DNA of 64,000 bases from Salinivirgaceae bacterium. GTDB taxonomy: Bacteria; Bacteroidota; Bacteroidia; Bacteroidales; SZUA-534. The notes below the pieces were generated by a model. That model did not search any database, had not been told where the DNA came from, and saw nothing but the letters and a program-made list of their open reading frames with translations. Position numbers and translations under genes: made by a program. Below, one piece after another: positions 29,357-64,000 of this stretch (positions are counted from its first letter, which is position 1; every line of letters starts with the position of its first letter). The stretch spans positions 4,781 to 68,780 of the forward strand of contig JBAYKX010000012.1 in assembly GCA_041664345.1 (NCBI GenBank), in the 5' to 3' direction.

Positions 29357-30241
29357 TTATAGCATAAATATATTTTTGCTGGAATGTTCTGCCTGATACT
29401 CGGAAGGGGTGCGGCGGACAATTTTTTTAAACTGCTCGTTAAAGTGGGAAATATTATTGAAGCCGCTTTCGTAGCAAGCCCGCGAGATGGAAGTGTTTTT
29501 TTCCGACAATAATTTACAGGCATGGCCCACCTTAAATTCATTTAAAAAAGAAAAGAAGGTTTTACCGGTGCGTTTTTTAAAATACCGGCAAAAAGCCGTG
29601 GACGACATGCTTACATGGTCCGAAATTTCATCAAGCGTAATTTGGTTCTGGAAATTGCGGATGATGTATTCGTGCACCTTGTTGAACCGTTGAAAGTCGT
29701 AAGTATTCACAATTTTGGAATACCCAACACTGGTAAGTATCTTCAATTCAGTGTTGGAGGCCATACGGTCCAACAATAAAATCAATTCGGTGATGCGCTC
29801 AATGCCCGAAAGTTTAAAAATCTTGCGGATGTGTTTTCCAAATTCCACTCTTGCTTTGCCTGTAAATTGAATTCCCCGTTGCGAGCGTTCCAGCAAATCT
29901 TTAATTTGCAGCATCTCGGGTAAGTTGATAAAATTCGAGTTGAAAATTTCTTTTCGGAACTGGATCACCAGCGATTTGGTGTTCATGCTGTTTGCATTTT
30001 CAAGAAAAATAGGATCGCTTTTCCACCAGTGCGGCACATTCTCGCCAATAATACACAAATCGCCCTCGCCAAAATTATTAACGCTGTCGCCAATATACCG
30101 TGTGCCGGTACTTTTTACCACATACAGGATTTCAATTTCGGGGTGGAAGTGCCACGGTACCATAAAATGGGGAATCTCTTCGTCAAGGAAAATGATGGAT
30201 TCCTCCGGTAAGGGTGCTAGTTTTTGAAAAAAGGGCTTCAT
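29357..30241 (-). CDS. AraC-family transcriptional regulator (cupin sensor plus HTH), divergent from the iol operon
   Basis: N-terminal cupin-like HFHPEIEILYV. C-terminal AraC double HTH (ITLDEISDHVSMSSTAFCRYFKKRTGKTF...ISRACYESGFNNISHFNEQFKK). Confidence 0.85.
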   Translation of the reverse strand: MKPFFQKLAPLPEESIIFLDEEIPHFMVPWHFHPEIEILYVVKSTGTRYIGDSVNNFGEGDLCIIGENVPHWWKSDPIFLENANSMNTKSLVIQFRKEIFNSNFINLPEMLQIKDLLERSQRGIQFTGKARVEFGKHIRKIFKLSGIERITELILLLDRMASNTELKILTSVGYSKIVNTYDFQRFNKVHEYIIRNFQNQITLDEISDHVSMSSTAFCRYFKKRTGKTFFSFLNEFKVGHACKLLSEKNTSISRACYESGFNNISHFNEQFKKIVRRTPSEYQAEHSSKNIFML

Positions 30242-30407
30242 ATAAGTCCGACTTTATTTGTGGGTGTAATTTAGCGATATTTTATTTAGAAAACAGAAAA
30301 AGGATAATATTCCATCATAAGTTGATAAAAACAGGGTTCATTGTCGCGTTACTGTGCCTAATTTTAACTTACTATTTTAGTAATAATAAAACACGCTCAA
30401 CTCAACT

Positions 30408-31331
30408 ATGCAATTACCAATAAACCATCTTTTTAAGCAGGCGTACGGGCATTACGGAATTGCGGCCTTCAACGTGTTTAACGCAGAACAGGTTTGGGCG
30501 GTTTTTGGCGGTGCTTCAAAATGCAAATTGCCTGTAATTATTCAAATAACACCGGCCGCCCGGAATTACCTGTCTTCAGAATTACTGATCCATTGCATCA
30601 AAGCGGCTGAAACCCGGTTTCCTGGGGTTGATTATTCCATTCACATGGATCACGGAAGCTTGGAACATTGCTATAATGCCATCCATTCGGGGCATTACAA
30701 TTCGGTAATGATTGACGCCTCGCACGAAACATTTTCCGAAAACGTAAGGATAACTCACGAAGTGGTAGCCCTGGCCCATCAAAAAGGGATTGCCGTTGAA
30801 GCAGAACTGGGAGTTTTGAGCGGAGTTGAAGATCACTTAACCATTGATTCCGGAAGTGCCCGTTTTACCGATCCGGCACAAGCCAAAGAATTTGTGAAAC
30901 TAACCCAATGCGATAGCCTAGCCATTGCCGTTGGAACCAGCCATGGAGCATACAAATTCAGTGGCACCCAAGGGTTGCAACTGGAAATACTCACAAAAAT
31001 CCATCAGCAATTGCCGGGTTTTCCTTTGGTGCTGCATGGCGCCTCGGCGGTTCCTTTTGCTGAAATAGAACGGATTAATAAAGCGGGAGGCCAGATCAAG
31101 GAAAGTGCCAAAGGGATTCAAAAAACAGAATTGCTGCAAGCCATCAAATTGGGTGTGTGCAAAATAAATATTGCCACCGACATTCGGTTGCTTTGGACCC
31201 GCGTGCATCGCGAATTCTTTTTGGAAACCCCGGAACTATTCGACATGGTGGTTCCCGGAAAAAAATTCATGGCTGAATTGGAAACTTTTGTGGTTGAAAA
31301 ATGCACCGGACTTATCATCAATGAACGTTAA
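30408..31331 (+). CDS. iolJ: class II aldolase, probable 6-phospho-5-dehydro-2-deoxy-D-gluconate aldolase
   Basis: Class II FBA/tagatose-bisphosphate aldolase motifs (IHMDHG, GTSHGAYK, LVLHGAS). Assigned to IolJ from its position in the iol operon. Confidence 0.75.
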   Translation: MQLPINHLFKQAYGHYGIAAFNVFNAEQVWAVFGGASKCKLPVIIQITPAARNYLSSELLIHCIKAAETRFPGVDYSIHMDHGSLEHCYNAIHSGHYNSVMIDASHETFSENVRITHEVVALAHQKGIAVEAELGVLSGVEDHLTIDSGSARFTDPAQAKEFVKLTQCDSLAIAVGTSHGAYKFSGTQGLQLEILTKIHQQLPGFPLVLHGASAVPFAEIERINKAGGQIKESAKGIQKTELLQAIKLGVCKINIATDIRLLWTRVHREFFLETPELFDMVVPGKKFMAELETFVVEKCTGLIINER

Positions 31332-31345
31332 TACATAATAATTAT

Positions 31346-32230
31346 ATGAATGCAAAAAAAAGCAATCTGCTGGTAAAATCTATCAATAACCCGATATATC
31401 AAAGACTCACTAATGAGCAGGCCGATTGGAAATTCCTGAATTTTCAGGCCCGCCACATGAACAAAGGCGAGACGCTTTGTGGTGATACCGGCGCCCATGA
31501 ATATTTATTTGTGCTGCTGGGAGGGAACTTTACTGCTTATACTTCGTACGGAAATTGGGAAACCAAAAATGGACGAAAGGATGTTTTCAGTGGATTGCCC
31601 CACGCTCTGTATTTGCCTCCTCACACACCCTACACCCTAAAAGCGGAAAGCGATCAGCTCGATTTGGCTTACGGATGGTGCCCGGCCAACGAAAAACACA
31701 ATGCCCGGTTTATAACTCCCGAAAGTGTCCAAAATTTGGGCATTGAATTCCGTGGTGGCGACAATGCAAGCCGCCAGATTAACAGCATCCTTCCTCCGGG
31801 TTCCGATTGCCAGCGTTTGGTTTGTGTGGAAGTTTATACCCCTTCAGGAAACTGGAGTTCGTTCCCTGCCCACAAACACGACAACCGGGTGGTAAATGCT
31901 GAATCCGGAAAGGTGACTGAAGCAAGCCTTGAAGAAGTTTACTTCTATAAGATTGACAAACCTCAAGGATTTGCCATACAAAAGATTTATACCGATGATA
32001 AAAGCATTAACGAATTGGTTGAAGTTGCCAACAACGATTTGGTGATGGTGCCCCGCGGGTATCATCCGGTGGTGGCCGGGCACGGGTACAATGTGTATTA
32101 CCTGAACTTCCTTGCCGGAAGCGATCAATCGTTGGCAAATACCGACGACCCCAAACATAAATGGATACACGGAACATGGAAAGGCATGGATCCGCGGTTG
32201 CCTATTGTTACGCTTGATATGAATAATTGA
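31346..32230 (+). CDS. iolB: 5-deoxy-glucuronate isomerase
   Basis: KduI/IolB-type double cupin (FPAHKHD...EEVYFYK...GYHPVVAGHGY). Operon context. Confidence 0.8.
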   Translation: MNAKKSNLLVKSINNPIYQRLTNEQADWKFLNFQARHMNKGETLCGDTGAHEYLFVLLGGNFTAYTSYGNWETKNGRKDVFSGLPHALYLPPHTPYTLKAESDQLDLAYGWCPANEKHNARFITPESVQNLGIEFRGGDNASRQINSILPPGSDCQRLVCVEVYTPSGNWSSFPAHKHDNRVVNAESGKVTEASLEEVYFYKIDKPQGFAIQKIYTDDKSINELVEVANNDLVMVPRGYHPVVAGHGYNVYYLNFLAGSDQSLANTDDPKHKWIHGTWKGMDPRLPIVTLDMNN

Positions 32231-32411
32231 TCTTTCGGGCTTATCTGCAATCGCAATAGATTGGTAGATTTTTAGACACAAGATATGAGACATGAGATGT
32301 GAGACAAAATATATCTTATTGGAAATCATCACATAATCTGTTTGTCAATACTTTTTACATACAACAGATTATTATTTTTTATGAAAATATAACGAACTAG
32401 TGCAATTTAAA

Positions 32412-33422
32412 ATGGAAAAAAAATACGATGTAATCACCTATGGAAGATCTTCCATTGATTTATACTCCGCAAATATTGGTGCCCCTTTTGTTGATATAAA
32501 ATCATTCAATGCTTATGTTGGAGGATCGCCACTGAATATGGCTGTTGGAACCCGCCGGTTGGGGTTAAAATCGGCCCTTTTAACAGCCGTTGGCGATGAC
32601 CAGATTGCCAATTTTCTGCTCAATTTTTTAAATAACGAAGGGGTAGAAACAAACCTAATTCCACGGAAACCGGGTAGTCGCACCAGTGCAGTGGTGCTGG
32701 GGATTGAACCTCCCGATAATTTTCCACTGGTTTATTACCGCGACAACTGTGCCGATTCAAAAGTTAACATCGACGATGTAATTCATGCCGACATTGCCTC
32801 CACTCGACTTTTCGAGATTTCGGCCACGGCATTGAATGTGGAGCCTACCCGCTCGGCTGCTTTTTATGCTGCCGAAGTTGCCGTTCAAAACAAGATCCCC
32901 ATTTTAATTGATTTGGATTTCAGGGCCGACCAATGGCACGATGCCCGTTCGTTTGGGGTTACCGCTCGCGCGTACCTAAAATACAGCACGCTGGCCCTGG
33001 GTACCGAAGAGGAGATACTGGCTACCATGCTCAAAGACCCAAACCAGATTAAGATTACAAATCAACAAATTTCGGCGCCTGAAATCCGTGGAAACGTGAA
33101 CGAAGCCATTAGTGGTATTATGGAACTTGGGGTGGAGGCGTTGATTGTAAAACGCGGAGCCAAAGGTTCGTCGGTATTTTTAAAGGACGGCAGCGTGATT
33201 GATGTCCCGGGTTTTCCGGTTGAAGTTTTGAATGTGCTTGGCGCCGGCGATGCCTTTGCCAGTGGTTTTATGTATGGTTACCTCAATGGTTGGGTTTGGT
33301 ACAAATGCTGCCGCATGGGCAATGCCTGTGGGGCAATTTTAGTTACCAATCCGGGTTGTTCCAATTTTAACCCCACGCTGCAAGAAGTTTTGGCTTTTAT
33401 TGAAAGTAAAGGAGGATTTTAA
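32412..33422 (+). CDS. iolC: 5-dehydro-2-deoxygluconokinase (PfkB family)
   Basis: PfkB motifs (GGSPLNMAVG and VLGAGDAFASGF). ATG at 32412. Operon context. Confidence 0.8.
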   Translation: MEKKYDVITYGRSSIDLYSANIGAPFVDIKSFNAYVGGSPLNMAVGTRRLGLKSALLTAVGDDQIANFLLNFLNNEGVETNLIPRKPGSRTSAVVLGIEPPDNFPLVYYRDNCADSKVNIDDVIHADIASTRLFEISATALNVEPTRSAAFYAAEVAVQNKIPILIDLDFRADQWHDARSFGVTARAYLKYSTLALGTEEEILATMLKDPNQIKITNQQISAPEIRGNVNEAISGIMELGVEALIVKRGAKGSSVFLKDGSVIDVPGFPVEVLNVLGAGDAFASGFMYGYLNGWVWYKCCRMGNACGAILVTNPGCSNFNPTLQEVLAFIESKGGF

Positions 33423-33435
33423 TAACCGGAATTGT

Positions 33436-35298
33436 ATGGAAAAAACAATTAAAATTACCGTGGCTCAAGCGGTTATCAGCTATCTTAAAAACCAATATGT
33501 GGAAAGCGATGGCGTTGAACATCGGTTTTTTGCCGGTTGTTTGGGCATATTTGGACATGGAAATATAGCAGGAATTGGTCAGGCATTGAGCCAAAACCCC
33601 GATTTTAAGTACATTATGACCCGCAACGAGCAAGCATCGGTGCATATTGCCATTGCTTATGCCAAGATGAAAGACCGCATGGGAACTTTTGTTTGTACCT
33701 CTTCCATTGGCCCCGGTGCAACCAACATGGTAACTGGAGCTGCCTGTGCTACCATAAACCGGCTGCCTGTGCTGCTCATTCCCGGCGATATTTTTTCCAC
33801 CCGTCAGGTTGCCCCGGTATTGCAGCAATTGGAATCATCGCAAACGCAAGATATTTCAGTAAATGATTGCTTTAAACCGGTATCGAAATACTGGGACCGC
33901 ATTAACCGCCCTGAACAGTTGATTATGGCATTGCCAGAAGTGATGCGGGTATTGACTTCGCCATCGGAAACCGGTGCGGTAACTTTATGCTTGCCACAAG
34001 ATGTTCAAGCCGAAGCTTATAACTTTCCGGAGGCTATGTTCAACAAGAGAGTGTGGCGCATTGCCCGCCCAAGGCCAGATTTATCGGCCTTAAAAGAAGC
34101 TGCAGCCTTGATTAAAAAAGCACAACACCCAGTTATTGTGAGTGGTGGCGGTGTTATTTACAGTCAAGCCACCGATTCATTGAAAGCGTTTGCTGAAAAA
34201 ACTGGAATCCCGGTAACGGAAACATTTGCCGGAAAAGGCGTGCTGACGTACCATCACCGGCTAAACCTTGGTGCTGTGGGTGCTACCGGAACCCCCGGTG
34301 CCAACGAAATTACAGCCAAAGCCGATGTGGTAATTGGGATTGGCACTCGCTACAGCGATTTTACCACCGCTTCAAAAACAGCATTCCAAAATCCCAATGT
34401 GCGTTTTATAAACATAAACATTTCGGAGTTCTATGCTTACAAACAACACGGAATATCGCTTACCGGCGATGCAAAAACCTGTATTGACGAGCTTTCCGAA
34501 TTACTGAACGGATACACCACTTCAAAAGATTACCAACAGCATATTGAAACCTTGAACCAATCGTGGGATGAGTATGTGACCAGCGTGTATACCAGTCATC
34601 AATCTGACTCTATTTCGCAAGCTGAGATTATTGGTGCGGTAAATGAAATTGCCAACCCGAACGATGTTGTGTTGTGCGCTGCCGGTAGCCTTCCGGGCGA
34701 TTTACATAAATTGTGGAGGGCAACACATCCCAAATCGTTCCATTTGGAATATGGCTATTCAACCATGGGCTATGAATGCGCTGCCGGAATTGGTGCCAAA
34801 CTGGCCAACCCCGAACGCGAAATTTGGGTAATGGTGGGCGATGGCAACTACCTAATGATGAACAGCGACATTATTACGGCCATTCAGGAAGGAGTAAAAT
34901 ATAACATTGTGTTAATCAACAACAATGGGTTCGGGAGCATCGGAAACCTTTCGCAGACAATTGGTTCACAACGGTTTGGAACCAAATACCGCTATCGCGA
35001 TACAGCTACCGGGCAATTAACGGGTGAAATATTGCCTGTAAACCTTGCTGAAAATGCTAGAAGCCTGGGTGCCGAAGTTATTGAAGCAAAGGACTTGCCC
35101 TCGTTGAAAAAGGCATTGGTACAAGTTAAGAATAATGAACGCACCACCGTGGTAGTGGTTGAAACCGAACTAACCAAAGGCATTCCCGGATATGCTTGGT
35201 GGGAAGTTGCCATAGCGGAAGTTTCGCAGGAAGAATCGGTAAACGAGGCCTACAAACAGTACGTTGAACATAAAAAAGGGCAAAAATATTATTGGTAA
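33436..35298 (+). CDS. iolD: 3D-(3,5/4)-trihydroxycyclohexane-1,2-dione acylhydrolase (TPP-dependent)
   Basis: TPP enzyme architecture with the GDGNYLMMNSD...NNNGFGSI TPP-binding motif. About 620 aa. Operon context. Confidence 0.85.
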   Translation: MEKTIKITVAQAVISYLKNQYVESDGVEHRFFAGCLGIFGHGNIAGIGQALSQNPDFKYIMTRNEQASVHIAIAYAKMKDRMGTFVCTSSIGPGATNMVTGAACATINRLPVLLIPGDIFSTRQVAPVLQQLESSQTQDISVNDCFKPVSKYWDRINRPEQLIMALPEVMRVLTSPSETGAVTLCLPQDVQAEAYNFPEAMFNKRVWRIARPRPDLSALKEAAALIKKAQHPVIVSGGGVIYSQATDSLKAFAEKTGIPVTETFAGKGVLTYHHRLNLGAVGATGTPGANEITAKADVVIGIGTRYSDFTTASKTAFQNPNVRFININISEFYAYKQHGISLTGDAKTCIDELSELLNGYTTSKDYQQHIETLNQSWDEYVTSVYTSHQSDSISQAEIIGAVNEIANPNDVVLCAAGSLPGDLHKLWRATHPKSFHLEYGYSTMGYECAAGIGAKLANPEREIWVMVGDGNYLMMNSDIITAIQEGVKYNIVLINNNGFGSIGNLSQTIGSQRFGTKYRYRDTATGQLTGEILPVNLAENARSLGAEVIEAKDLPSLKKALVQVKNNERTTVVVVETELTKGIPGYAWWEVAIAEVSQEESVNEAYKQYVEHKKGQKYYW

Positions 35299-35318
35299 AG
35301 ATTTAAACAACAAAAGAA

Positions 35319-36788
35319 ATGGAACTATTAAAGAATTATATTGATGGAAATTGGGTTGAAAGCAAGAGTACAGCTAACTTTGGGGTAGAAAATCCGGCCA
35401 CGGGGCAAATTATGTACAAAGTACCTGCCGGCTGTCGCGAAGATGTGAACTTTGCCTCTGAAAAAGCGAAACAAGCCTTTCCCGCATGGCGGAATACTCC
35501 CGCTACACAACGCATCCAATACCTTTTCAAAATGAAACAGGTACTTGAGGCCAACGCCGATGAAATTGCAACCCTTTGTACCCACGAGAGCGGAAAAACC
35601 TTTGCCGAATCGAAAGCTGAAATTGTGCGGGCCGTTGAAAACATTGAGGTTGCCTGTGGCATTCCGGTATTGATGCAAAGCGAATTTTCAGAAGATATTG
35701 CCGTAGGTATTGATGAATACATGATAAGGCAACCCCTTGGACTGGGCGCCTGCATTACCCCTTTCAATTTTCCGGTAATGATTGCATTTTGGTTTATGCC
35801 CTATGCTTTGGCCAGCGGCAACACCTACATTGTGAAACCTTCGGAAAAAGTACCCAAAACCATGGCGAAAATATTCGAGTTTTTCGAAGCCCTGAACCTG
35901 CCCAAAGGGGTGCTCAACATGGTTCATGGAGGCAAAGAAACCGTGGATGCCATATTGGAACATCCGTATATCGATGCCATTAGTTTTGTGGGTTCCACGG
36001 CGGTAGCCAAACATGTGTATCAATACGGAACCGCTCATGGCAAAAGGGTTCAGGCGCAAGGCGGGGCCAAAAACCCCATTATAATTATGCCAGATGCCAA
36101 TATGGAAACGGCGGTTAAAATTGTTGCCGACAGCGCATTCGGTTGTGCCGGACAACGGTGTTTGGCTGCTTCCATTGTAATTACGGTAGGGAGTGCCAAA
36201 GAGGCTTTTGTTTCAAAAATGGTGGAAGCCGCCAAATTGAAAACTACCGGAAACGGTTTGAGCAAAACAACAGAAATGGGCCCGGTAATTACCTCCGAAA
36301 GCAAAACCCGTATTGAATCGTTTATCCAAAAAGGTGTTGATGAAGGCTGTAGCCTTTTGTTGGATGGACGAAATGCACAAGTTGAAGGGCTTGAAAAAGG
36401 TCATTTCATTAAACCAACCATTTTAAGCGACATTAAGCCCGAAAGCGAAACCTTTTCCACCGAAATATTTGGCCCGGTGTTGAGCATCATGCACGCCGAC
36501 AACCTCGATGAAGCCATTGGCATTGTCAATAGAGGCCGGTATGGAAATGCCGCGTGCATCTTTACCCAAAGCGGTTCAGCCGCCCGCAAATTCCGCCACG
36601 AGGCCATTGCCGGAAATATTGGCGTAAATATTGGCATTGCAGCACCCATGGCCTTTTTCCCTTTCAGTGGCTGGAAAGAAAGTTTCTTTGGCGATTTGCA
36701 CGGGCAATCGCGACATGCGGTGGAGTTCTACACTCAAACCAAAGTGGTTATTGAGCGTTGGCACGATGAATGGAGTCGAAAATTTTAA
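35319..36788 (+). CDS. iolA: CoA-acylating methylmalonate/malonate-semialdehyde dehydrogenase
   Basis: ALDH family with catalytic [10 protein letters not shown] Cys and the ...ERW... tail typical of MmsA/IolA. Confidence 0.85.
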
Positions 36789-36800
36789 CCTTTTTATGAT

Positions 36801-37700
36801 ATGATAAAAATAGCAAATGCCCCATGCTCGTGGGGCATACTGGAATTTGACCTCCAGGGTGAGGCCGCCGGATTTGAACAGGTTTTGAACGAGATGAAGG
36901 AAACCGGATACGAAGGGACTGAACTTGGCGACTGGGGCTTTATGCCTACCAACCCAAATGAGTTAAAAAAAGAACTTCAAAAGCGCAATTTCCAACTTTT
37001 AGGGGCTTTTGTTCCGGTGTTTTTAAAAGACAAATCGAAACACCAAGCCGGGGTAGAATTGGCAGTAAAAACGGCAAAACTTATGGCTGATGCCGGGTTT
37101 AAAGATGCCTTTATTGTGTTAGCCGACGAAAACGGCAGCATGCCTGCCCGCACCAAAAATGCCGGACGGGTAACTCAAGCCATGAAATTAACCCATGAGG
37201 AATGGAACGTTTTTGCCGAAGGCGCCAACCAAGTAGCTGCCGAGGTAAAAAAACAAACCGGGTTGCGTACCGTGTTTCATCACCATTGCGCCGGTTACGT
37301 AGAGACTCCCGACGAAATTGATATGTTGCTCAACCTAACCGACCCAAAACTTTTAGGGTTGGTACTCGATATGGGGCATTACTATTTTGGTGGAGGAAAC
37401 CCTTTGGAGGCACTGAAAAAATACAATCAGCGTATTTGGCATGTCCACTTTAAAGATTGCGACCCGACCATTGCCATAAATTCGCGAAAAAAAGAACTGG
37501 ATTACTTCCAATCGGTGCGCGATGGGGTTTTTTGTGAGCTTGGCAAAGGTGCTGTCGATTTTAAAGCCATTGTTCAGGAATTGCATCAGCAAAAATACAA
37601 TGGCTGGATAGTGGTTGAGCAAGATGTGCTTCCCGGAATGGGCAACCCAAAAGTTTGTGCCCAACGCAACAGAGATTATATTAAATCATTAGGACTATAG
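36801..37700 (+). CDS. iolE: inosose (2-keto-myo-inositol) dehydratase, xylose-isomerase-like TIM barrel
   Basis: By-eye alignment to B. subtilis IolE recalled from memory: FHHHCAGYVETPDEIDMLLNLTDPKLLGLVLDMGH vs [42 protein letters not shown] vs HVHFKDV; YNGWIVVEQD vs YKGWIVVEAEQD. Confidence 0.75.
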   Translation: MIKIANAPCSWGILEFDLQGEAAGFEQVLNEMKETGYEGTELGDWGFMPTNPNELKKELQKRNFQLLGAFVPVFLKDKSKHQAGVELAVKTAKLMADAGFKDAFIVLADENGSMPARTKNAGRVTQAMKLTHEEWNVFAEGANQVAAEVKKQTGLRTVFHHHCAGYVETPDEIDMLLNLTDPKLLGLVLDMGHYYFGGGNPLEALKKYNQRIWHVHFKDCDPTIAINSRKKELDYFQSVRDGVFCELGKGAVDFKAIVQELHQQKYNGWIVVEQDVLPGMGNPKVCAQRNRDYIKSLGL

Positions 37701-39028: not shown

Positions 39029-39046
39029 TTTTTAAACAAACACTAG

Positions 39047-53837: not shown

Positions 53838-53887
53838 TATTGATTAAAAGGCACTTATTAAATCTGTCTAGGTTATTTTAATTAAAG

Positions 53888-53902
53888 AGTCACACCGTGA
53901 CT
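53888..53902. promoter_or_regulatory. palindrome AGTCAC-N3-GTGACT, copy 2
   Basis: agtcacaccgtgact. Exact reverse complement of copy 1, 50 nt downstream of it. Confidence 0.3.
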
Positions 53903-56281: not shown

Positions 56282-56328
56282 TTTTGTTTACGGCTATTAT
56301 GAGAGATAAACCCCAAAAATTTTTAAAG

Positions 56329-59091
56329 ATGAAGATACATCATTCTTTTTTAACCTTGGTTTTAGTCTTTGCAACCTTTGTTGGGAATGCACAATCAGTG
56401 ATTCGCAACAAAAGTTATTTCGATAGCTTAAATGACACCCACGATGTAATTGCGCTTCCCAATTGGGGACCCTATTCTAAAAAATATGCCGGCATTTCGC
56501 ATATTCCCGAAATTTCAACAGGCATGCGCTTCGATGTTACAGCCTTGCCGGGATATTACCGCAACCGGGTGATGGTGCCCAACGTGCTTTTCGAATCGGG
56601 TTATTATCCGTGGGACATTAACAAAGAATTGTCGAAAGTTACCTACCGGTACGAACTGGAGTGGAAAGACAAAGTTTATGTTGATGTTACCTATTCAACT
56701 TTAGATACTTCAACGGTATTGGTAAGCATGGAATGCGTAAACCAAACTATGTTGCCCCAGGAACTGCAATTGAATCTGGCCGGATTTATCAACTATCCGG
56801 AACCTTATGCCAATTTTCAAGCCAAGCATAGCAACCAAGTTACGTTCATCAATGCCGTCTCATACACCCATCTTCAATTTGCCAAACCCCGCCCGTCGGA
56901 CAATCTGGTTTACGATGGTTGGTTTCGTGGCGAAACCCGCAATGCCGATTTTTTAAATGGAAACGGCATTGGCAAAGGCTTTGGAACCGATAAAGGCGAC
57001 TGGGTCACATACACCGTTCCGCTCCAGAACAATGAAAAAGAAGGGATTCTTACTTTACGGTACCGCATGAAAGAGAACAACTCCAACGCTTTGGTTTTTT
57101 CCGGATTGGTGAATGAAACCCTTCAATTGAAAGGAACCGGCAACTTTGAACTGATACAAGTCCCTTATAAATGCGATAAAAATGAAGCGGAGCTAAAACT
57201 AACTGCCGCAGGAGGGTGCGAAATTGAACTCGATGGCTTTTTTATGGGCTCGACAAGTAATTCTAAATCCATTGAAATAGTGCCCATTGCGAAGAAATTT
57301 ATTCCAGAATTTGTTAAAAACCTACAAGCAGGAACCCTGTTGCTAAAATATCCCGATGTAGCTGTTTATTACGGAATGGCATGGGATTATCCATCATCGT
57401 TTGTGCGCGAAATTGTGGATGAAGAGCTGGATGTGATTTTTAAAAAATACGTGCACGAGCACAACTATCTGGTTTTCCCGGGTGATGAAAAAGGTCATTA
57501 CATTAATGTGTTTATGCGCCCTGTTGAGTTGGAACCCATGAGCAGCCGAACCGTTTACAGCATTGTTTGTACGGGAACCAAACCGCAGGTGGAAAACCAA
57601 CTAGCCCAATTCAGTAAAAACCCGGAGAGCTTTGTTTCAAAAGGGGAAAAAGCTGAAAACATCTTTGAGGGCGATTTGGAGCAGGGAAAACCCTTCCAGT
57701 TCAGCCAGAACATGATGAGGGCCGCATTGCAATACAACATTGTGTATCCCATATACACGCAAGGAGAATTTATCCGCCACTTTACCCCAGGAAAATGGTG
57801 GAACAGCCTATATACTTGGGATGCAGGTTTTATTGCTTTAGGATTGTCTGAAATTGATATCGATAAATCCATTCAGTTCCTGAACACCTATACCACACCC
57901 GTGGGAAGCCAGTCGGCATTCATCCATCACGGTTCGCCAGTTCCCGTGCAAATGTACGCTTTTTACGATCTCTGGAACAAAACGCAGTCGAAGGAATTGC
58001 TTACCTATTTTTATCCGAGGCTGAAACAATATTACGAATTTATGGCGGGTCGTTCGGGCAGTTCTACCACCAACCCATTCAAATCGGACCTGTTAAAAAC
58101 GTGGGATTACTTTTACAATTCCGGTGGCTGGGACGATTACCCTCCGCAAAAAGCCGTGCGCGACAACCATTTGGAAGCCACCGTTTCGCCGGTAATTACC
58201 ACGGCACATATAATCCGAGTTGCCAAAATATTACGGAAAGCGGCTATAGAATCGGGCCACGAAGCCGATGTAAAAACGTACGATAACGACATTAAAACCT
58301 TTACCAAAGCCTTACAAACAGTAGCTTGGGATGCAAAAAGCGGTTATTTCAGTTACATGGTCCACAATTCGCTCGGAAACCCCAAAACTTTTTACACGGA
58401 TCCAAATAGTGGCGCCAATTACAACATGGGTTTAGATGGTGCCTATCCCATTTTTTCAGGTATCTGCACCCCCGAACAGGAAGAAATATTGCTCGATAAA
58501 ATATTTTCCGAAGAACACATGTGGAGCAAAGCCGGAATTTGCGTAGTGGACAAGCAGGCTCCCTATTACCGAATTGACGGGTATTGGAACGGTGCTGTAT
58601 GGATGCCGCACCAATGGTTTATGTGGAAAACCATGTTCGATATGGGGCGGACCGATTTGGCCTGGAAAATTGCTGACCGGGCATTGAATGTATGGAAAAG
58701 CGAAACCGACGAAACCTACTTTACCTACGAACACTGGTTTGCAAAAACTGCCCGTGGTGCAGGCTGGCACCAGTTTGGAGCATTGTCGGCTCCGGTACTC
58801 AACTGGTATGCCGCTTACTACAAACCGGGCACCGTTACCACCGGTTTCGAGATTTGGATTGAGAGCCAATCGTTCAACAGCGACCATTCGGCCTACCAAG
58901 CCAGCCTTTCGTTTGATGAAGCTACCCATGCCCACAAACGCAGCATGGTGGCTTGCCTGAATCCAAATTTTACTTACGAAGTTTTAGTGGATGGTAAAAA
59001 AATAATTGCCCAAAGCAGGTACCCGGGATTACTGGAAATTGAACTTCCGGCAAGTAATAAACCCTGTAAATTGGTGATAAATAAACAATAA
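56329..59091 (+). CDS. glycoside hydrolase, (alpha/alpha)6-barrel GH63/GH37-like (MGH1-like) with large N-terminal beta domain
   Basis: Signal peptide from the ATG at 56329. C-terminal half has WWNSLYTWDAGFIALGL, GGWDDYPPQ, YYRIDGYWNGAVWMPHQWFMWKTMFDMG, resembling the trehalase/GH63-type catalytic barrel. The family call is approximate. Confidence 0.55.
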   Translation: MKIHHSFLTLVLVFATFVGNAQSVIRNKSYFDSLNDTHDVIALPNWGPYSKKYAGISHIPEISTGMRFDVTALPGYYRNRVMVPNVLFESGYYPWDINKELSKVTYRYELEWKDKVYVDVTYSTLDTSTVLVSMECVNQTMLPQELQLNLAGFINYPEPYANFQAKHSNQVTFINAVSYTHLQFAKPRPSDNLVYDGWFRGETRNADFLNGNGIGKGFGTDKGDWVTYTVPLQNNEKEGILTLRYRMKENNSNALVFSGLVNETLQLKGTGNFELIQVPYKCDKNEAELKLTAAGGCEIELDGFFMGSTSNSKSIEIVPIAKKFIPEFVKNLQAGTLLLKYPDVAVYYGMAWDYPSSFVREIVDEELDVIFKKYVHEHNYLVFPGDEKGHYINVFMRPVELEPMSSRTVYSIVCTGTKPQVENQLAQFSKNPESFVSKGEKAENIFEGDLEQGKPFQFSQNMMRAALQYNIVYPIYTQGEFIRHFTPGKWWNSLYTWDAGFIALGLSEIDIDKSIQFLNTYTTPVGSQSAFIHHGSPVPVQMYAFYDLWNKTQSKELLTYFYPRLKQYYEFMAGRSGSSTTNPFKSDLLKTWDYFYNSGGWDDYPPQKAVRDNHLEATVSPVITTAHIIRVAKILRKAAIESGHEADVKTYDNDIKTFTKALQTVAWDAKSGYFSYMVHNSLGNPKTFYTDPNSGANYNMGLDGAYPIFSGICTPEQEEILLDKIFSEEHMWSKAGICVVDKQAPYYRIDGYWNGAVWMPHQWFMWKTMFDMGRTDLAWKIADRALNVWKSETDETYFTYEHWFAKTARGAGWHQFGALSAPVLNWYAAYYKPGTVTTGFEIWIESQSFNSDHSAYQASLSFDEATHAHKRSMVACLNPNFTYEVLVDGKKIIAQSRYPGLLEIELPASNKPCKLVINKQ

Positions 59092-59095: not shown

Positions 59096-60658
59096 ATGAA
59101 ATACATCCGAATAAAAACATTCGAAAGAGCAACAAGATATGGATTCATTAGTCTGGTTCTGTGTGTTTTAATTGATTTTTTTATTACATCATGCAACTCA
59201 TCAAACTTCAACATTGAAAAACTGGGCGCCATTGGCGATGCCGAAACACTGAATACCGCCATCATCCAAAAAGCCATCGACCAAGCATCGGCAAACGGCG
59301 GCGGAACAGTAATCATCCCATCAGGGCAATTTTTAACTGGTGCCCTATTTCTTAAAAACGGCGTGGAATTGCACCTCGAAAAAGGAGCCCGGTTATTGGG
59401 TAGTACCAACCGGTTGCATTACGGGCAAGATACGGCGTTTGCGCTCATATCGGCGGATCATCAGCACCACATTTCCATTACCGGACAGGGAATTATTGAC
59501 GGACAAGGCGCCGAAGTGGTAAAAAATTTATACAAACAGTTGCGCTCGGGTCGCTTAAACGATGATCAGTACAACACCAAACACCCCCGTGAACATTCGC
59601 GCCCTGAATTGGTCGCTTTTTCGGAATGTAGAAATCTTTCGGTTTCGGGAGTTACCTTAAAAAACAGTGCTTCATGGGTGCTCACTTTTCGCAACTCCTC
59701 GCAAATAAAAGTTGATAGCCTTACCGTGGAAAGCAGCGTGTATTGGAACAACGACGGGATTGATGTGGTAAACTGCAACGGTGTCCGCATTTCGGGTTGC
59801 GTCATTGATTGTGCCGACGATGGCATCTGCCTCAAGTCGGAAGGTCCAATAAAAGGCATTTGCGAAAATGTAACGGTGGAAAATTGTACCATCCGCAGCA
59901 GTGCCAGCGGCTTCAAACTTGGCACAGGTTCTCACGGAGGATTCAAAAACATTACCGTTCGTAATTTAACAATTTACGATACCTACCGATCGGCCGTGGC
60001 CATTGAATGTGTTGATGGTGGAGTGCTTGAAAACATTGATGTGCGCAACATCACCGCAAAAAACACGGGCAATGCCATTCTTATTCGATTGGGACACCGG
60101 AACAAAGAGGGCGAAGTGGGTTCTCTTAAAAATGTTTACATTGGAAATCTATACGCCGAAATCCCGGCAGGAAAACCCGACATTGGCTATCCGCTTGAAG
60201 GTCCACGGCAGAAATACCCGCACAACGTATTTCCTTCGTCCATCACGGGGCTTCCAGAGCATAAGGTTGAAAACGTAACCCTCGAAAACATTGAACTGGT
60301 TTACCAAGGAGGTGGCAACAAGGAAACAGCCTTTACCGATTGGAAAAAACTGGACGAAGTGACTGAAAACGAAGCGGGTTATCCTGAATTTTCCATGTTT
60401 GGAGAATTGCCTGTTTGGGGCTTTTATGTACGGCATGTAAACGGGTTGAAGTTGGAGAACGTAAAAATCTCAAAAAAAGGGAACGATTACCGTCCGGCAA
60501 TGGCTTTCAACCAGGTTGACAGTTTACAAATAGATGGTCTTACCTTGTTGAACGACAGCGTAATGCCAAACCTTATTCTTAAAAATGTAACGGGTTTTTC
60601 ATCTAAAAACATACTATTACCTTACCCGAGTTTAAAAGGCATTTATACATGGAAGTAA
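59096..60658 (+). CDS. GH28-family glycoside hydrolase (polygalacturonase-like, parallel beta-helix)
   Basis: NNDGIDVV (NxDG), CADDGICLKS (DD), GTGSHGG (HG) catalytic-region motifs. Repetitive beta-helix turns (ENVTVENCTI, KNITVRNLTI, ENIDVRNITA). Confidence 0.8.
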   Translation: MKYIRIKTFERATRYGFISLVLCVLIDFFITSCNSSNFNIEKLGAIGDAETLNTAIIQKAIDQASANGGGTVIIPSGQFLTGALFLKNGVELHLEKGARLLGSTNRLHYGQDTAFALISADHQHHISITGQGIIDGQGAEVVKNLYKQLRSGRLNDDQYNTKHPREHSRPELVAFSECRNLSVSGVTLKNSASWVLTFRNSSQIKVDSLTVESSVYWNNDGIDVVNCNGVRISGCVIDCADDGICLKSEGPIKGICENVTVENCTIRSSASGFKLGTGSHGGFKNITVRNLTIYDTYRSAVAIECVDGGVLENIDVRNITAKNTGNAILIRLGHRNKEGEVGSLKNVYIGNLYAEIPAGKPDIGYPLEGPRQKYPHNVFPSSITGLPEHKVENVTLENIELVYQGGGNKETAFTDWKKLDEVTENEAGYPEFSMFGELPVWGFYVRHVNGLKLENVKISKKGNDYRPAMAFNQVDSLQIDGLTLLNDSVMPNLILKNVTGFSSKNILLPYPSLKGIYTWK

Positions 60659-60669
60659 TAAACAAGCCA

Positions 60670-63006
60670 ATGAAAGGCTTAATTTATATAGCCACTTTTG
60701 TTATGCTTTTTAGCTGTAACAAAAATGAAACACCACGGCCGGTTGATCTGGTTTATCCGCAAATGGGTTCGGCGTGGTCGCGGTGGTTTTATTTTTCATC
60801 GGCATGTCGTCCTTTTGGCATGGTAAGCCTTTTCCCCGACACCAAAATTGATGGCGAATGGAAAAGTGGCTACCGATACAACGTTGATACCATCCGCGAT
60901 TTCAGCCACATCCATGAATGGCAGCTTTCGGGGGTGGCTGTAATGCCTGTTACCTTTACCAATGAAAACAGGGATTCTATATTTGCCGACTGGTCTTCAA
61001 ATTTTTCGCATCAAAACGAAACCGTAAAGCCGGGCTATCATTCGGTTTTGCTTGAACGCTACCAAATAAAAGCTGAACTAACTGCCACCAATCGCGTGGG
61101 AGTTCATCGCTATTCGTTTCCAAAAAACCAAAAAAACGGCATCGTGTTCCAGCTTTCGAAGCAATTAGGCCCATCGGAATTCATTGAAGGCGGTTTTAAA
61201 CAAACCACTGAAAATGAAATTACCGGATTCATGGTGAACAGCCCAACCATGCGACGACCCAAACCTACAACAGTCTATTTTTGTGCCCGTTTCAGCCAAC
61301 CCATAAAATTAATTTACCTTTCAACGGCTGACAGTATTTTCCCTTCAACCGAATGGAAAGGCGAAAACGGTAACATTTTGGTTGAATTCAACGAAAATTT
61401 GAACGAACCATTATTGATGAAAGTTGCCGTTTCGTTTACCGATGAAGCGGGGTCTGCTAAAAATATGGAAACTGAAATGCCCGATTGGGATTTCAATCAG
61501 GTAGTCCAAGTGGCTGACAACCAATGGAACGACATGCTTTCGCGAATCGAAATTGAAGGCGGAACCGACCAACAGCAACGGCGCTTTTACACCGACTTGT
61601 ATCATGCCATTATCGGCCGCCGCATTGTAAGCGATGCCGATGGCAAATACGCCGATATGACCGGGCCTGAAAAAATAATCCGCCAGCTCCCGCTCAATGA
61701 ACAAGGCAAACCAAAATTCAACATGTACAACTCCGATGCCTTTTGGGGCGCCCAATGGACGCTGAACACTTTATGGCAGTTGGTATATCCAGAAGTTGCC
61801 CAAGAATTTTGCAACTCTTTTCTGGAATATTATAAAAACGGCGGGCTCATTCCGCGCGGCCCTTCGGGAGGAAACTACACGTTTGTGATGAATGGAGCCT
61901 CAAGTACGCCATTCTTTGTGAGTGCGTGGCAAAAAGGAATCCGTGGGTTCGATATAAACCTAGCTTACCAAGGATTGAAGAAAAATCACCTGCCCGGCGG
62001 CCTGATGAGCAAAGTTGGCTACGAACACAACACCACAAATGGCGGCGGTTTGGAATGGTACATGCAAAAAGGATATGTTCCTTACCCGCTTTCCTACACC
62101 ATTTACGGCAGCCACCAAGATGGAGCCGCCATTACGCTCGAAAATTCTTATCAGGATTGGTGTTTGGCACAACTGGCCAAGTCGCTGGGTAAAGTGGACG
62201 ATTACAAAACGTTCATGCAAAGGTCCGAAAATTTCAAGAACCTGTTCAATCCCGAATTGGGATTTATGGTGCCGAAAGATAAAAACGGCAACTGGAAAAC
62301 CCCCTTCGACCCAATGCTTTACGACAACGGGTTTATTGAAGGAAACGGGGCCCAGTTCACGTGGTTTGTGCCTCATAACCTGCCCTCTCTTTTTGAGTTG
62401 CTAGGTAGTACCGATTCTGTTATCGCGCGGTTGAACCGCGAGTTTGAACTAACTCGGGAATTCCGCTTCTGCAACGAGCATCCCGAAAAGGAAGCAATTA
62501 CCGGACTGAAATATGTAAACGACCGCCGCACGTGGATAAATTACTCGAACCAGCCCAACAGCCATGCGGCGTTTATTTTTAACCACGCTGGGGCACCGTG
62601 GCTCACTCAATATTGGAGCCGCACCGTGGTTGACAGTGTTTTTTCGGGCTTATCGCCATACTGCGGTTACCAAGGCGACGAAGATCAGGGGTTGATGGGT
62701 TCACTGGCGGTACTCATGAAAATGGGCTTTTTCCAGATGAGCGGAGGTTGCGAGGAAGATCCGCTCTACGAATTGGGTAGCCCGTTGTTCAATAAAGTCA
62801 CCATTCATTTGCAACCGGAATTTTACCAAGCGCCAACATTTACAATAACTTGCGAAGGGAATAACAGCGATGCTCCCTTTATACAATCGGCAACTTTAAA
62901 CGATAAACCTTTAAAAACGGTTTGGTTCAAACATTCCGATATTACAAAAGGTACACAAATTTTACTCAAAATGGGAAGTGAATTAAACAAAAAATGCTTT
63001 AATTGA
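60670..63006 (+). CDS. GH92-family glycoside hydrolase, second copy, lipoprotein
   Basis: ATG at 60670 with lipobox MLFSC. GYQGDEDQGLMGS variant of the GH92 GNDDxGxMS segment. About 780 aa. Collinear similarity to 39047..41317 (e.g. MPDWDFNQV / IPHWDFEQV, FYTALYH / FYTDLYH). Confidence 0.85.
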   Translation: MKGLIYIATFVMLFSCNKNETPRPVDLVYPQMGSAWSRWFYFSSACRPFGMVSLFPDTKIDGEWKSGYRYNVDTIRDFSHIHEWQLSGVAVMPVTFTNENRDSIFADWSSNFSHQNETVKPGYHSVLLERYQIKAELTATNRVGVHRYSFPKNQKNGIVFQLSKQLGPSEFIEGGFKQTTENEITGFMVNSPTMRRPKPTTVYFCARFSQPIKLIYLSTADSIFPSTEWKGENGNILVEFNENLNEPLLMKVAVSFTDEAGSAKNMETEMPDWDFNQVVQVADNQWNDMLSRIEIEGGTDQQQRRFYTDLYHAIIGRRIVSDADGKYADMTGPEKIIRQLPLNEQGKPKFNMYNSDAFWGAQWTLNTLWQLVYPEVAQEFCNSFLEYYKNGGLIPRGPSGGNYTFVMNGASSTPFFVSAWQKGIRGFDINLAYQGLKKNHLPGGLMSKVGYEHNTTNGGGLEWYMQKGYVPYPLSYTIYGSHQDGAAITLENSYQDWCLAQLAKSLGKVDDYKTFMQRSENFKNLFNPELGFMVPKDKNGNWKTPFDPMLYDNGFIEGNGAQFTWFVPHNLPSLFELLGSTDSVIARLNREFELTREFRFCNEHPEKEAITGLKYVNDRRTWINYSNQPNSHAAFIFNHAGAPWLTQYWSRTVVDSVFSGLSPYCGYQGDEDQGLMGSLAVLMKMGFFQMSGGCEEDPLYELGSPLFNKVTIHLQPEFYQAPTFTITCEGNNSDAPFIQSATLNDKPLKTVWFKHSDITKGTQILLKMGSELNKKCFN

Positions 63007-63131
63007 TAGCTTAAACTTATAAAAGATGAAACCTCCATGCAGGTAACTGCACAAAAACGGATGAAAATTTGCATGGGGTGTTCCATTCGTACGAAACAAT
63101 TGATATTCAATGAACTAAAAATTATTTACGA

Positions 63132-64000
63132 ATGAAAAGACTATTTTTAATTCCAGCCGCAGCCCTCTTTGTATCAATGGGAACAGTTACGGCACAAACA
63201 GCAAACATGGCTACAATTGATGCCACCAAGATTGACCAAAAAATAAACCGGTTAATCTACAGCCAGTTTTCAGAACACCTCGGAAACTGCATTTACGACG
63301 GTATGTGGGTGGGCGAAAACTCCCCCATCCCTAACAAAAATGGCATCCGCACCGATGTAATGGAAGCCCTCAAAAAAATACAGGTTCCATCGATGCGCTG
63401 GCCGGGCGGTTGCTTTGCCGATGAATACCACTGGATGGATGGCATTGGACCGAAAGCGGACCGTCCGAAAATGATAAACACCAACTGGGGAGGCGTTACC
63501 GAAGACAACAGCTTTGGGACACACGAATTTATGGAACTTTGCAGCCAAATTGGATGCGAACCTTACATAAGCGGAAACCTTGGCAGCGGCACCGTTCAGG
63601 AAATGTCGCAATGGGTTGAATACCTAAACTCCGACAATGAAAGCCCCATGACTTCGCTACGTAAAGCCAACGGCCGCGACAAATCGTGGGGAGTAAAATA
63701 TTGGGGCGTGGGAAATGAATCGTGGGGATGCGGTGGCCGTATGAAACCCCAATACTATTCCGATCAAGCCCTGCATTATTCCAACTTTTTACGGAGTTAC
63801 GGCAGCAACCGGTTGAATCAGATTGCTGTTGGCCCCAATGGCGACGATTACAACTGGACCGATGTAGTGATGAAAGAATTAGGATCCAATTTTTGGGGAC
63901 TTTCGCTGCATTACTACACTTGGATGAATAGTTCGTCGGCTACCGACTTTAAAGAAGACGGATGGTTCCAGGTAATGAAAAAAACCTCACAGATGGAAGA
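63132..64000 (+). CDS. GH51-family alpha-L-arabinofuranosidase, 3'-truncated by window end (absent from the ORF track)
   Basis: My own translation from the ATG at 63132 is open to position 64000. [22 protein letters not shown] signal peptide. [19 protein letters not shown] and [13 protein letters not shown] (acid/base Glu region) are hallmark GH51 segments. Confidence 0.8.

Follow-up and report, generated by a model that had tools for sequence, protein, structure and literature searches.

A myo-inositol catabolic operon joined to a SusC/SusD polysaccharide-utilisation locus in Bacteroidota: a candidate regulon for inositol-phosphate glycans

In Bacillus subtilis, the degradation of myo-inositol depends on the operon iolABCDEFGHIJ, which is controlled by IolR. 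The same seven enzymatic steps are encoded in one co-directional operon in the DNA discussed here, a stretch of 64,000 nucleotides (the window) from a Bacteroidota genome of sediment origin, a Salinivirgaceae bacterium (GenBank assembly GCA_041664345.1, contig JBAYKX010000012.1, positions 4,781 to 68,780), where this operon is joined to a polysaccharide-utilisation locus (PUL). The two systems differ in that a divergent AraC-family gene stands here in place of the DeoR-type IolR, the window has no permease of the major facilitator superfamily (MFS) such as IolT or IolF, a gene encoding a GH92 glycosidase starts 18 nt after iolG, and uptake would rely on a sodium:solute symporter (SSF) and a SusC/SusD pair. 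We propose a single regulon, made up of the iol operon and the PUL, for the utilisation of myo-inositol-phosphate glycans, with inositol catabolism built in. The head group of plant glycosylinositol phosphorylceramides (GIPCs) would be the most likely substrate; on balance we favour this reading. The iol half is a member of the canonical pathway with a non-canonical regulator and non-canonical transport, while the other half has the structure of a PUL but no PUL-type regulator.

The PULs of Bacteroides thetaiotaomicron that are devoted to yeast alpha-mannan (PMC4978465) resemble this second half: they have a SusC/SusD pair accompanied by several GH92s, and a phosphate-bearing mannoglycan is trimmed sequentially by exo-acting enzymes in the periplasm, as we suppose is also the case here. 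The present locus differs from them by its GH28, GH63-like, GH51, PIG-L and PAP2 genes, its AraC-type regulator and its complete inositol pathway. Endo- and exo-mannanases of families GH76, GH125 and GH99 and dedicated PUL-type regulators are typical of the B. thetaiotaomicron alpha-mannan PULs, whereas Pfam scans of the window detected no gene of these three families.

A precedent for a SusC/SusD-type importer inside an operon for the catabolism of a small molecule is the nan operon of Tannerella forsythia, with NanO and NanU (PMC3969230), and its design is shared by three loci in which a SusC/SusD pair goes with iol genes (L003, L005 and L031; the L-numbers are our labels for the fetched loci of relatives). 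The T. forsythia operon is for sialic acid rather than for inositol or an inositol glycoside, and the window adds a full set of carbohydrate-active enzymes (CAZymes). The same principle, an outer-membrane harvesting device joined to iol, is found in Arthrospiribacter ruber, where the iol operon is followed by genes for a TonB-dependent receptor, a beta-propeller phytase and a phosphate-selective porin (L078:11274-17514). This arrangement looks like a unit that harvests inositol from phytate; it differs from the window in that the substrate is not a glycan and that neither SusD nor CAZymes are present.

Two eukaryotic systems are also relevant. The lysosomal enzymes HGSNAT and NAGLU (GH89), which act on heparan sulfate, have a parallel in modules related to the present one, where a NagX-like gene directly precedes a GH89 gene; by analogy, this pair suggests that terminal alpha-glucosamine (GlcN) may be acetylated and then cleaved. 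Alpha-GlcN is found on the glucuronic acid (GlcA) of many plant GIPCs (PMC12201980). The parallel is incomplete, in that the pair is not in the window, whose locus has a PIG-L/CE14-like gene instead, and the sulfatases and lyases of heparin PULs are not present. Eukaryotic GIPC phospholipases (the sphingomyelinase-like enzyme of the fungus Botrytis, plant NPC4 and GIPC-PLD) produce the substrate that we propose, that is, soluble glycans of hexose, uronic acid, inositol (Ins) and phosphate (Hex-UA-Ins-P), which carry pentose chains when they are freed by the fungal enzyme (bioRxiv 10.1101/2023.11.16.567443). Relatives of the locus encode, at the matching position, a lipoprotein of the endonuclease/exonuclease/phosphatase (EEP) family with jacalin and ricin domains, for which the window has no gene. 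We know of no bacterial enzyme of this kind that has been characterised. Full-text literature searches brought up neither a fusion of iol with a PUL nor the bacterial degradation of the glycan head group of GIPCs; the original prediction, made from the sequence of the window, likewise knew of no characterised PUL of such logic.

Four independent lines (synteny, a shared promoter motif, a recurrent linkage and the phosphoesterases) support the idea, already put forward in the original prediction, that the iol operon and the PUL work as one unit that would take its inositol from a glycoconjugate. The gene list (Table 1) is based on a map of open reading frames (ORFs) and on Pfam and NCBIfam profile scans with curated cut-offs, which confirm the genes and strands given in the original prediction. 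All seven enzymes of the canonical pathway were found, as predicted; the order of their genes is corrected to J-B-C-D-A-E-G, with IolE scoring below its cut-off and IolJ being assigned by a match to the generic class II aldolase subfamily only. Every gene from 30408 to the end of the window lies on the + strand, and the locus continues on this strand beyond 64000 in a near-identical public contig (ENA metagenome contig ERZ27249449 k141_127794, 137,863 bp). The GTG start codon of the first GH92 gene (GH92a, 39047) comes 18 nt after the iolG stop codon (39026-39028), and the public gene call gives the same start. What identifies the second half as a PUL is the presence of adjacent susC and susD genes with co-directional CAZymes, lipoproteins and cargo of the type IX secretion system (T9SS), the products of the genes at 47725 and 50345 both having the PF18962 domain at their C-terminus.

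The whole arrangement, from the AraC gene through iolJBCDAEG, GH92a, SusC, SusD and the 318-aa lipoprotein to the T9SS cargo, recurs in several JGI metagenomes (91% identity of GH92a) and in GCA_050296555.1 (71–72%). Other architectures also retain the iolG-GH92a junction, with GH92 identities as low as about 61%. The distal block (phosphatase, GH63-like, GH28, GH92b, GH51, GH2, PIG-L, GH28', SSF', where the primes denote the copies located past the end of the window) is conserved at 70–77% GH92b identity, and its first four genes are kept together in L169, L170 and L171. This comparison of gene neighbourhoods in related Bacteroidota bears out the conservation of the junction and of the iol-PUL adjacency, which the original prediction had proposed as a check. 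It also speaks against the alternative raised there, a chance adjacency of the two halves, together with the motif and the linkage described below.

The strongest evidence in the sequence for the co-regulation of iol and SusC/SusD is a 24-nt element, TAAWATWSCATYAHAWRTKGDTAA, which we drew from the spacers between the AraC gene and iol in the window, L083, L087, L005 and L006, compared with the spacers upstream of susC. When up to 3 mismatches are allowed, this element has just two occurrences in the window, one in front of iolJ and the other in front of susC (Table 1); 0.04 sites are expected by chance. A pattern made from the five iol promoter sites alone still picks up the susC site, at one mismatch, and no others besides the iol site (chance expectation 0.00). 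In 2.64 Mb of fetched loci, with up to 2 mismatches, the sites occur almost only before the first AraC-linked iol gene or about 197 nt before a susC gene of the window type. The latter position is kept in L083-89 and L087, in spite of the divergence between relatives of the spacer sequence around the motif. The motif is also present at the iol operons of L005 and L006, neither of which has the GH92 module (in L005, a different SusC/SusD pair follows iolG). It consists of two TAAWA-type half-sites about 21 nt apart, a layout that would be expected for an activator of the AraC type. The motif, a putative operator, argues for co-regulation, as does the 18-nt spacing between iolG and GH92a.

The AraC-family protein is a candidate regulator of both the iol and the susC operons. 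Its orthologues adjoin iol operons with and without a PUL (L005, L006, L083-89, L087 and L147). No second regulator was found at 29.3-64 kb, in agreement with the original prediction, nor among the 10 ORFs scanned in 12.3-29.0 kb. An IolR-type repressor (DeoR or RpiR), which had been noted as missing, is not among these genes, and our scans from 29 to 73 kb, which include the continuation of the contig, detected no hybrid two-component system (HTCS), no extracytoplasmic function (ECF) sigma/anti-sigma pair and no SusR-type regulator. Regarding transport, the prediction that there is no inositol permease holds within the window only: we found no SSF or MFS permease at 29.3-64 kb or among the 10 upstream ORFs, but on the public contig a gene for an SSF symporter (SSF') lies about 7.5 kb downstream on the same strand. 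The missing permease is thus an artefact of where the window ends, since SSF' lies past 64000.

GH92a is part of a conserved module of Bacteroidota. Its subfamily is unusually conserved, with 60–70% identity across Cytophagia, Chitinophagia, Sphingobacteriia, Bacteroidia and Ignavibacteria. We collected 80 metagenome loci around GH92a orthologues and clustered all their ORFs. The commonest partner of GH92a is a GH28 of the window type (42 loci), followed by a second GH92 (38 loci, in 10 of which it belongs to the GH92b type and in 28 to another), a GH89 alpha-N-acetylglucosaminidase (27 loci, usually just after the gene of a NagX-like transmembrane glucosamine N-acetyltransferase, found in 16), a metallophosphoesterase (17) and GH28' (14). 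One particular type of SusC/SusD was found in 14 and 15 loci, respectively. Further members of the module are SSF symporters, GH2, GH43/GH51, a NagB-LmbE fusion, GH88, LacI, the fucosidases GH29 and GH95, PafA-like enzymes, the alpha-glucuronidase GH115, and a short-chain dehydrogenase/reductase (SDR) with UxuA, for glucuronate catabolism. In the cultured bacterium Mangrovibacterium marinum, for instance, the module comprises an ECF sigma factor, an anti-sigma factor (FecR), SusC, SusD, GH92, GH92a, GH43, GH28, GH89, DUF5009, GH115 and Metallophos, and there are no iol genes within 10 kb.

To count linkage, GH92a groups were dereplicated at 90%, and inositol genes were sought within 10 kb in loci of at least 12 kb. 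Genes of inositol catabolism are linked to GH92a in 12 groups out of 35, iol genes in eight and the gene of myo-inositol oxygenase (MIOX) in four; the figure is 10/33 when the window's own group and L010, which was seeded with IolG, are left out. We estimate the chance rate at less than 1%, considering one operon of about 9 kb in a genome of about 5 Mb. The junctions are of several types. In the type of the window, GH92a and SusC/SusD follow iolG. In L010, L163, L114, L134 and L155, the order is GH92-iolJ..G-GH92a-GH28'-SSF', and in L111 an iol operon with an internal SSF gene is followed by GH92a-GH28-GH92-GH28'. In L129 and L133, MIOX heads an operon (MIOX-SusC-SusD-NagX-SSF) which adjoins GH92-GH92a and has a divergent LacI regulator. 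MIOX, which is rare in bacteria, is encoded beside the GH92a module in L121, L125 and L130 as well. In a rough neighbour-joining tree of GH92a, most iol-linked genes fall in one clade, while L111, L143 and the MIOX loci are elsewhere.

Other loci were found by starting from IolG. In L003, SSF-iolJBC-EEP-iolDAEG is directly followed by a SusC/SusD pair of the module type, and no glycosidase is encoded in the roughly 10 kb that come after iolG; the gene between iolC and iolD (L003:4557-5411) encodes a 285-aa protein of the EEP family. Another SusC/SusD pair follows iolG in L005 and L031, and a GH127 gene does in L032. L006 and L007, on the other hand, are stand-alone AraC-SSF-iol operons. Considering these various junctions, iol joined to a device for harvesting bound inositol looks like a recurrent design in Bacteroidota, and a general habit of the phylum is suggested, in which the harvesters are EEP enzymes, SusC/SusD pairs, or a TonB receptor that goes with a phytase. 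We also observed that iolC and iolJ are not in the fetched loci L005, L006 and L007 (10 kb each side), whose iol operons are closely related; a gene of the transaldolase/FSA family stands there between SSF and iolD (L006:4453-5559), so that 5-deoxy-glucuronate may be processed by a different lower pathway.

The phosphoesterases give the fourth line of evidence: non-orthologous enzymes occupy the same position in the distal block, PAP2 in the window and, in L171, the alkaline phosphatase PafA (NCBIfam score of 691 bits, above cut-off). Just upstream of the phosphatase, L169/L170 and L171 encode an EEP (Exo_endo_phos2) lipoprotein with a jacalin domain, with or without a ricin-B lectin domain. 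The jacalin domains resemble mannose-binding jacalin-related lectins in a search of the PDB, which gave no match for the EEP domain.

What could the substrate be? Functional coupling between iol and the PUL is very probable, and we consider it likely that the substrate of the PUL carries inositol; that it is a plant-type GIPC or inositol phosphoglycan (IPG) is, by itself, an evenly balanced proposition. In plant GIPCs, ceramide is linked by a phosphodiester to inositol, which bears GlcA; the latter carries mannose (Man), glucose, GlcN or N-acetylglucosamine (GlcNAc), and extensions of arabinose (Ara), galactose (Gal), Man and fucose (Fuc) (PMC12201980). That substrates of GH89 occur in the inositol-containing glycosphingolipids of plants is mentioned in passing in a bioinformatic paper (PMC4176579). 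Judging from the families present, the enzymes of the module would match the GIPC head group component for component: GH92 for alpha-Man; GH89 with the NagX-like protein, and PIG-L/CE14, for alpha-GlcNAc or GlcN; GH115, GH88, UxuA with the SDR, and the divergent GH28 for glucuronate; PAP2, PafA or Metallophos, used interchangeably, plus EEP for the phosphate esters; GH51/GH43, GH2 and GH29/GH95 for Ara, Gal and Fuc; and iol or MIOX, with SSF, for inositol. The GH28 of the window is a candidate alpha-uronidase. The catalytic Asp motifs are invariant in each cluster (NND and ADD in GH28, NSD and GDD in GH28'), and neither protein has the GHG and RIK motifs that are classical for polygalacturonases, which is consistent with a specificity other than pectin. 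Notably, the GH28' encoded next to SSF' in the iol-linked loci has no signal peptide, whereas GH28' does have one elsewhere; this suggests that a final uronyl-inositol fragment may be imported and split in the cytoplasm.

Beyond the gene content, its conservation, the common motif and the recurring linkage, which the sequences show, the mechanism that we propose is as follows. The T9SS-secreted proteins with immunoglobulin-like (Ig) domains and leucine-rich repeats (LRR), together with surface lipoproteins, would bind the GIPC head group or the inositol-phosphate glycans released from it, that is, (Man/GlcN/GlcNAc)-GlcA-Ins-1-P bearing Ara, Gal, Man or Fuc. In relatives, the EEP-jacalin/ricin enzyme, which the window does not encode, could cut the ceramide-phosphate bond. 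Phosphate would be stripped by the PAP2 lipoprotein (by PafA or a metallophosphoesterase in relatives), and the glycan imported by SusC/SusD. In the periplasm, GH51 and GH2 would remove Ara and Gal, the two GH92s alpha-Man, PIG-L/CE14 would handle GlcNAc or GlcN, and the GH63-like enzyme and GH28 would cut the bonds that adjoin inositol. What is left, either GlcA-inositol or inositol itself, would enter the cytoplasm through SSF'. There the GH28' encoded next to it would release inositol, which IolG, E, D, B, C, J and A would convert into dihydroxyacetone phosphate and acetyl-CoA. The AraC-type protein, sensing inositol or an intermediate, would drive the iol-GH92 and susC operons through the shared 24-nt operator.

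Several observations weigh against this proposal. In about two thirds of the GH92a modules, no inositol gene lies within 10 kb, and part of the conservation is inherited, since the iol-linked GH92a genes belong mainly to one clade. The specificities of all the module enzymes are read from family membership and context, and we know of no GH28 or GH63 enzyme that cuts a glycosyl-inositol bond. The SusC/SusD pair of the window is only about 25% identical to the type that is common in the module. Searching the window with the genes of relatives (tblastn) gave no homologue of EEP, PafA, GH89, NagX, MIOX, GH88 or SSF, and GH115 is not in the window either. Given that the EEP-lectin gene is not found there, the organism may not attack the intact lipid, and it may be that, having no GH89, NagX, GH115 or EEP in the window, it uses glycans that have already been released or a narrower set of head groups. 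Regarding regulation, the motif pattern was partly derived from the sites that it recovers, a circularity which the pattern built from the iol sites avoids. There is no copy of the motif before the PAP2 block, which is preceded by hairpins (53758-53902), so that co-regulation of the distal half is only a possibility.

The same logic could apply to another inositol glycoconjugate: fungal mannosyl-inositol-phosphoceramides (MIPC and M(IP)2C), zwitterionic GlcN-Ins GIPCs, glycosylphosphatidylinositol (GPI) anchors (Man3-GlcN-Ins-P, including those of plant arabinogalactan proteins), or the phosphatidylinositol mannosides (PIM), lipomannan and lipoarabinomannan (LAM) of actinobacteria. Indeed, two or three GH92s per locus, a phosphatase and inositol catabolism would suit a Man-Ins-P structure; PIG-L/CE14 and, in related modules, GH89 with NagX would suit the GlcN-inositol of GPI, of fungal GIPCs and of mycothiol-type bonds, and the jacalin domains of the EEP enzymes of relatives are like mannose-binding lectins. 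However, such a substrate would leave unexplained GH28, which is the most conserved partner of GH92a, as well as GH115, GH88 and UxuA, and the fucosidases and GH2 are better suited to the extensions of plant GIPCs. To our knowledge, none of the fungal MIPC, GPI and PIM/LAM substrates contains a uronic acid. The GH51 is an ordinary alpha-L-arabinofuranosidase, whereas the degradation of mycobacterial D-arabinan required other, newly found enzyme families (PMC10115798). LAM/PIM and GPI, which were among the candidate substrates of the original prediction, therefore fit worse than the plant-type GIPC of the same list, which fits best, and we consider this explanation unlikely. The LAM/PIM version of it was set aside, the locus having no D-arabinan enzyme families and uronidase-type genes instead.

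It may also be that iol and the PUL are co-regulated without having a common substrate, the PUL being devoted to a commonplace glycan of plants or fungi (side chains of the pectic, arabinan or mannan type, or N-glycans) and free myo-inositol, which is abundant in decaying plant tissue, being merely an inducer and a nutrient metabolised in parallel. GH28, GH51, GH2, GH43 and the fucosidases are typical CAZymes of plant cell wall degradation, inositol genes do not adjoin the majority of GH92a modules, and the module of M. marinum, which lies under an ECF sigma/anti-sigma pair, has no iol genes within 10 kb. But this explanation, which we find rather unlikely, does not account for the phosphoesterases of three unrelated families fixed in the module, for MIOX at the head of a SusC/SusD operon, for the SusC/SusD pairs, EEP gene or phytase found with iolG in other Bacteroidota, or for the cytoplasmic GH28' beside SSF precisely in iol-linked loci. 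Besides, the set of alpha-mannosidase, alpha-N-acetylglucosaminidase and uronidase-type enzymes, which always occur together, is foreign to pectin and to N-glycans. A PUL purely for pectin (rhamnogalacturonan I or II) was set aside on the ground that GH92, GH89 and the phosphoesterases are unsuited to it. Last, chance or inheritance alone might have joined iol to an unrelated PUL, as the concentration of the iol-linked GH92a genes in one clade and the 520-nt spacer between GH92a and susC could suggest. This is strongly disfavoured, and very improbable in our opinion, in view of the motif present at both promoters only, of the independent junctions in L111, L143, the MIOX loci and L003 (with SusC/SusD), and of a linkage frequency far above that expected.

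If the plant GIPC reading is right, the module would provide candidate enzymes for the Man/GlcN(Ac)-alpha-GlcA and GlcA-alpha-1,2-inositol bonds, for which we know of no hydrolase, the head groups of glycolipids would be a new class of PUL substrates, and a PUL would be run by the regulator of a catabolic operon through a shared operator. Cultured strains are at hand, such as M. marinum and Roseimarinus sediminis. Among the glycosphingolipids of plant membranes, GIPCs predominate (PMC12201980), and on that account soils, sediments and guts should contain a large store of carbon, phosphorus and inositol in this form. We tentatively see here, with somewhat less than even confidence, the first bacterial pathway for the turnover of the GIPC head group: a phylum-wide module, in which GH92 would remove the sugar borne by GlcA-inositol, GH28 (possibly also the GH63-like enzyme) would act as glycosyl-inositol hydrolase, a cytoplasmic GH28 would work with an SSF importer of uronyl-inositol, the phosphoesterases would be interchangeable, and an AraC-type inositol sensor would control both operons.

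Table 1. Features of the iol-PUL locus (positions in the window; "contig" refers to the public contig that continues it; scores in bits)
Feature	Position	Strand	Basis or remark
AraC-family regulator	29357..30241	-	Pfam HTH_18, HTH_AraC, Cupin_2; divergent from iolJ
Operator-like 24-nt motif, site 1, TAATATTCCATCATAAGTTGATAA	30305..30328	+	80 nt before iolJ ATG
Class II ketose-bisphosphate aldolase, IolJ role	30408..31331	+	PF01116; TIGR00167, 234 vs cut-off 216
IolB, 5-deoxy-glucuronate isomerase	31346..32230	+	TIGR04378, 316 vs cut-off 205
IolC, 5-dehydro-2-deoxygluconokinase	32400..33422	+	TIGR04382, 369 vs cut-off 300; public call starts at 32412
IolD, trihydroxycyclohexane-1,2-dione acylhydrolase	33400..35298	+	TIGR04377, 904 vs cut-off 715
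IolA, CoA-acylating (methyl)malonate-semialdehyde dehydrogenase (MMSDH)	35319..36788	+	TIGR01722, 566 vs cut-off 448
IolE-like inosose dehydratase	36801..37700	+	TIGR04379 best match, 225, under cut-off 290
IolG, inositol 2-dehydrogenase	38009..39028	+	TIGR04380, 469 vs cut-off 355
GH92a, putative alpha-mannosidase, type I signal peptide	39047..41317	+	Pfam; central gene of the module that is conserved
Operator-like 24-nt motif, site 2, TAAAATACCATTACAAGTGGTTAA	41604..41627	+	211 nt before susC ATG
SusC-like TonB-dependent transporter	41838..44921	+	Pfam CarbopepD_reg_2, Plug, beta-barrel
SusD-like lipoprotein	44932..46698	+	Pfam SusD-like_2
318-aa lipoprotein, usual position of a surface glycan-binding protein	46762..47718	+	N-terminal lipobox; kept in L083-89 and L087
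T9SS-secreted Ig/SWM-repeat protein	47725..50313	+	Por_Secre_tail (PF18962), Ig_3
T9SS-secreted LRR and Ig protein	50345..53743	+	Por_Secre_tail (PF18962), LRR, Ig
PAP2 (class A acid-phosphatase-type) lipoprotein, C-terminal PATR beta-helix repeat	54161..56281	+	Pfam
GH63-like / MGH1-like (alpha/alpha)6 glycosidase	56284..59091	+	PF22422
Divergent GH28 lipoprotein	59096..60658	+	PF00295, above cut-off
GH92b, putative alpha-mannosidase, lipoprotein	60649..63006	+	Pfam; in 10 module loci
GH51 alpha-L-arabinofuranosidase	63132..64000 (cut by window end)	+	666 aa with PA14 domain on contig
LacZ-type GH2	contig, past 64000	+	after GH51-PA14
PIG-L/CE14-like protein, N-terminal membrane anchor	contig, past 64000	+	after GH2
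Second GH28 (GH28'), no signal peptide	contig, past 64000	+	after PIG-L
Sodium:solute symporter (SSF'), 729 aa	contig, ~7.5 kb past window end	+	after GH28'

Regarding the individual proteins, both GH92 products have the N-terminal and the catalytic domain of the family at full length. The closest solved structures to GH92a, in a sequence search of the PDB, are BT3130 and the alpha-1,4-specific BT3965, whose clade we take to hold the sole known alpha-1,4-mannosidase. The motifs of the PAP2 protein are intact (KX6RP as KYLYSTPRP at 224, PSGH at 320, and RX5HX3D, which is SRX5HX3D in the signature, as NR-IVAGM-H-SPV-D at about 354-365), and its PDB matches are the acid phosphatases PhoN and PhoC; the same search with the GH63-like protein matched nothing. 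The GH51 is of the ordinary AbfA type, 60–65% identical to enzymes of many phyla. The 318-aa lipoprotein matches no Pfam or NCBIfam family, and its AlphaFold model, made without an alignment, has a pLDDT of 34.6 and is unusable.

The spacers within the locus vary. Between iolE and iolG there are 309 nt (37701-38008), compared to 127 nt in the 91% relative. The extra DNA, perhaps a small repeat that was inserted there, contains palindromes that are rich in G+C (one is AACCCGGGGC-AAC-GCCCCGGGTT, at 37782-37804) and have no T-run on the + strand. GH92a and susC are 520 nt apart, whereas the called genes of L083 are separated by 292 nt. The spacer of the window contains an insertion (41366-41480), with inverted arms CCCTCC.../...GGGAGG, that is missing from the relative, and site 2 of the motif lies downstream of it. 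Two long hairpins, with arms of 28 and 27 nt, fill the 418-nt spacer between the second T9SS gene and PAP2, where relatives carry the EEP-jacalin/ricin gene; they may be a terminator or the scar of a gene loss. An Rfam search of 28-64 kb gave no match to an RNA family, and a scan for sigma-70 promoters, whose consensus is wrong for Bacteroidota, was uninformative (36 sites compared to 41 expected).

The left flank of the locus is different in relatives, which carry a DUF418 gene there, and we therefore place the border of the locus at the AraC gene. Upstream of it, the 10 ORFs scanned are mostly housekeeping (IleRS, LspA, DksA, an HD phosphohydrolase, PGM). A small toxin-antitoxin-like pair (a DUF5615-like ORF and a DUF433 gene called on the public contig) is found at 28692-29300, between the AraC gene and a 760-aa protein that belongs to no family.

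The closest genomes are metagenome-assembled genomes of Prolixibacteraceae and Marinilabiliales. The window and the public contig, otherwise identical, differ over 21 kb by 11 substitutions and a single deletion of 1 nt, located between 28307 and 48457, with 41830 and 46698 among the positions concerned. The change at 46698, from G to A, creates a stop codon which makes SusD 17 residues shorter than on the public contig (588 compared to 605 aa). Last, we note that the G+C content rises from 0.36–0.38 upstream of the locus (26001-30000) to 0.44–0.46 across the iol genes (30001-40000), which may reflect coding density or a different history of the locus.

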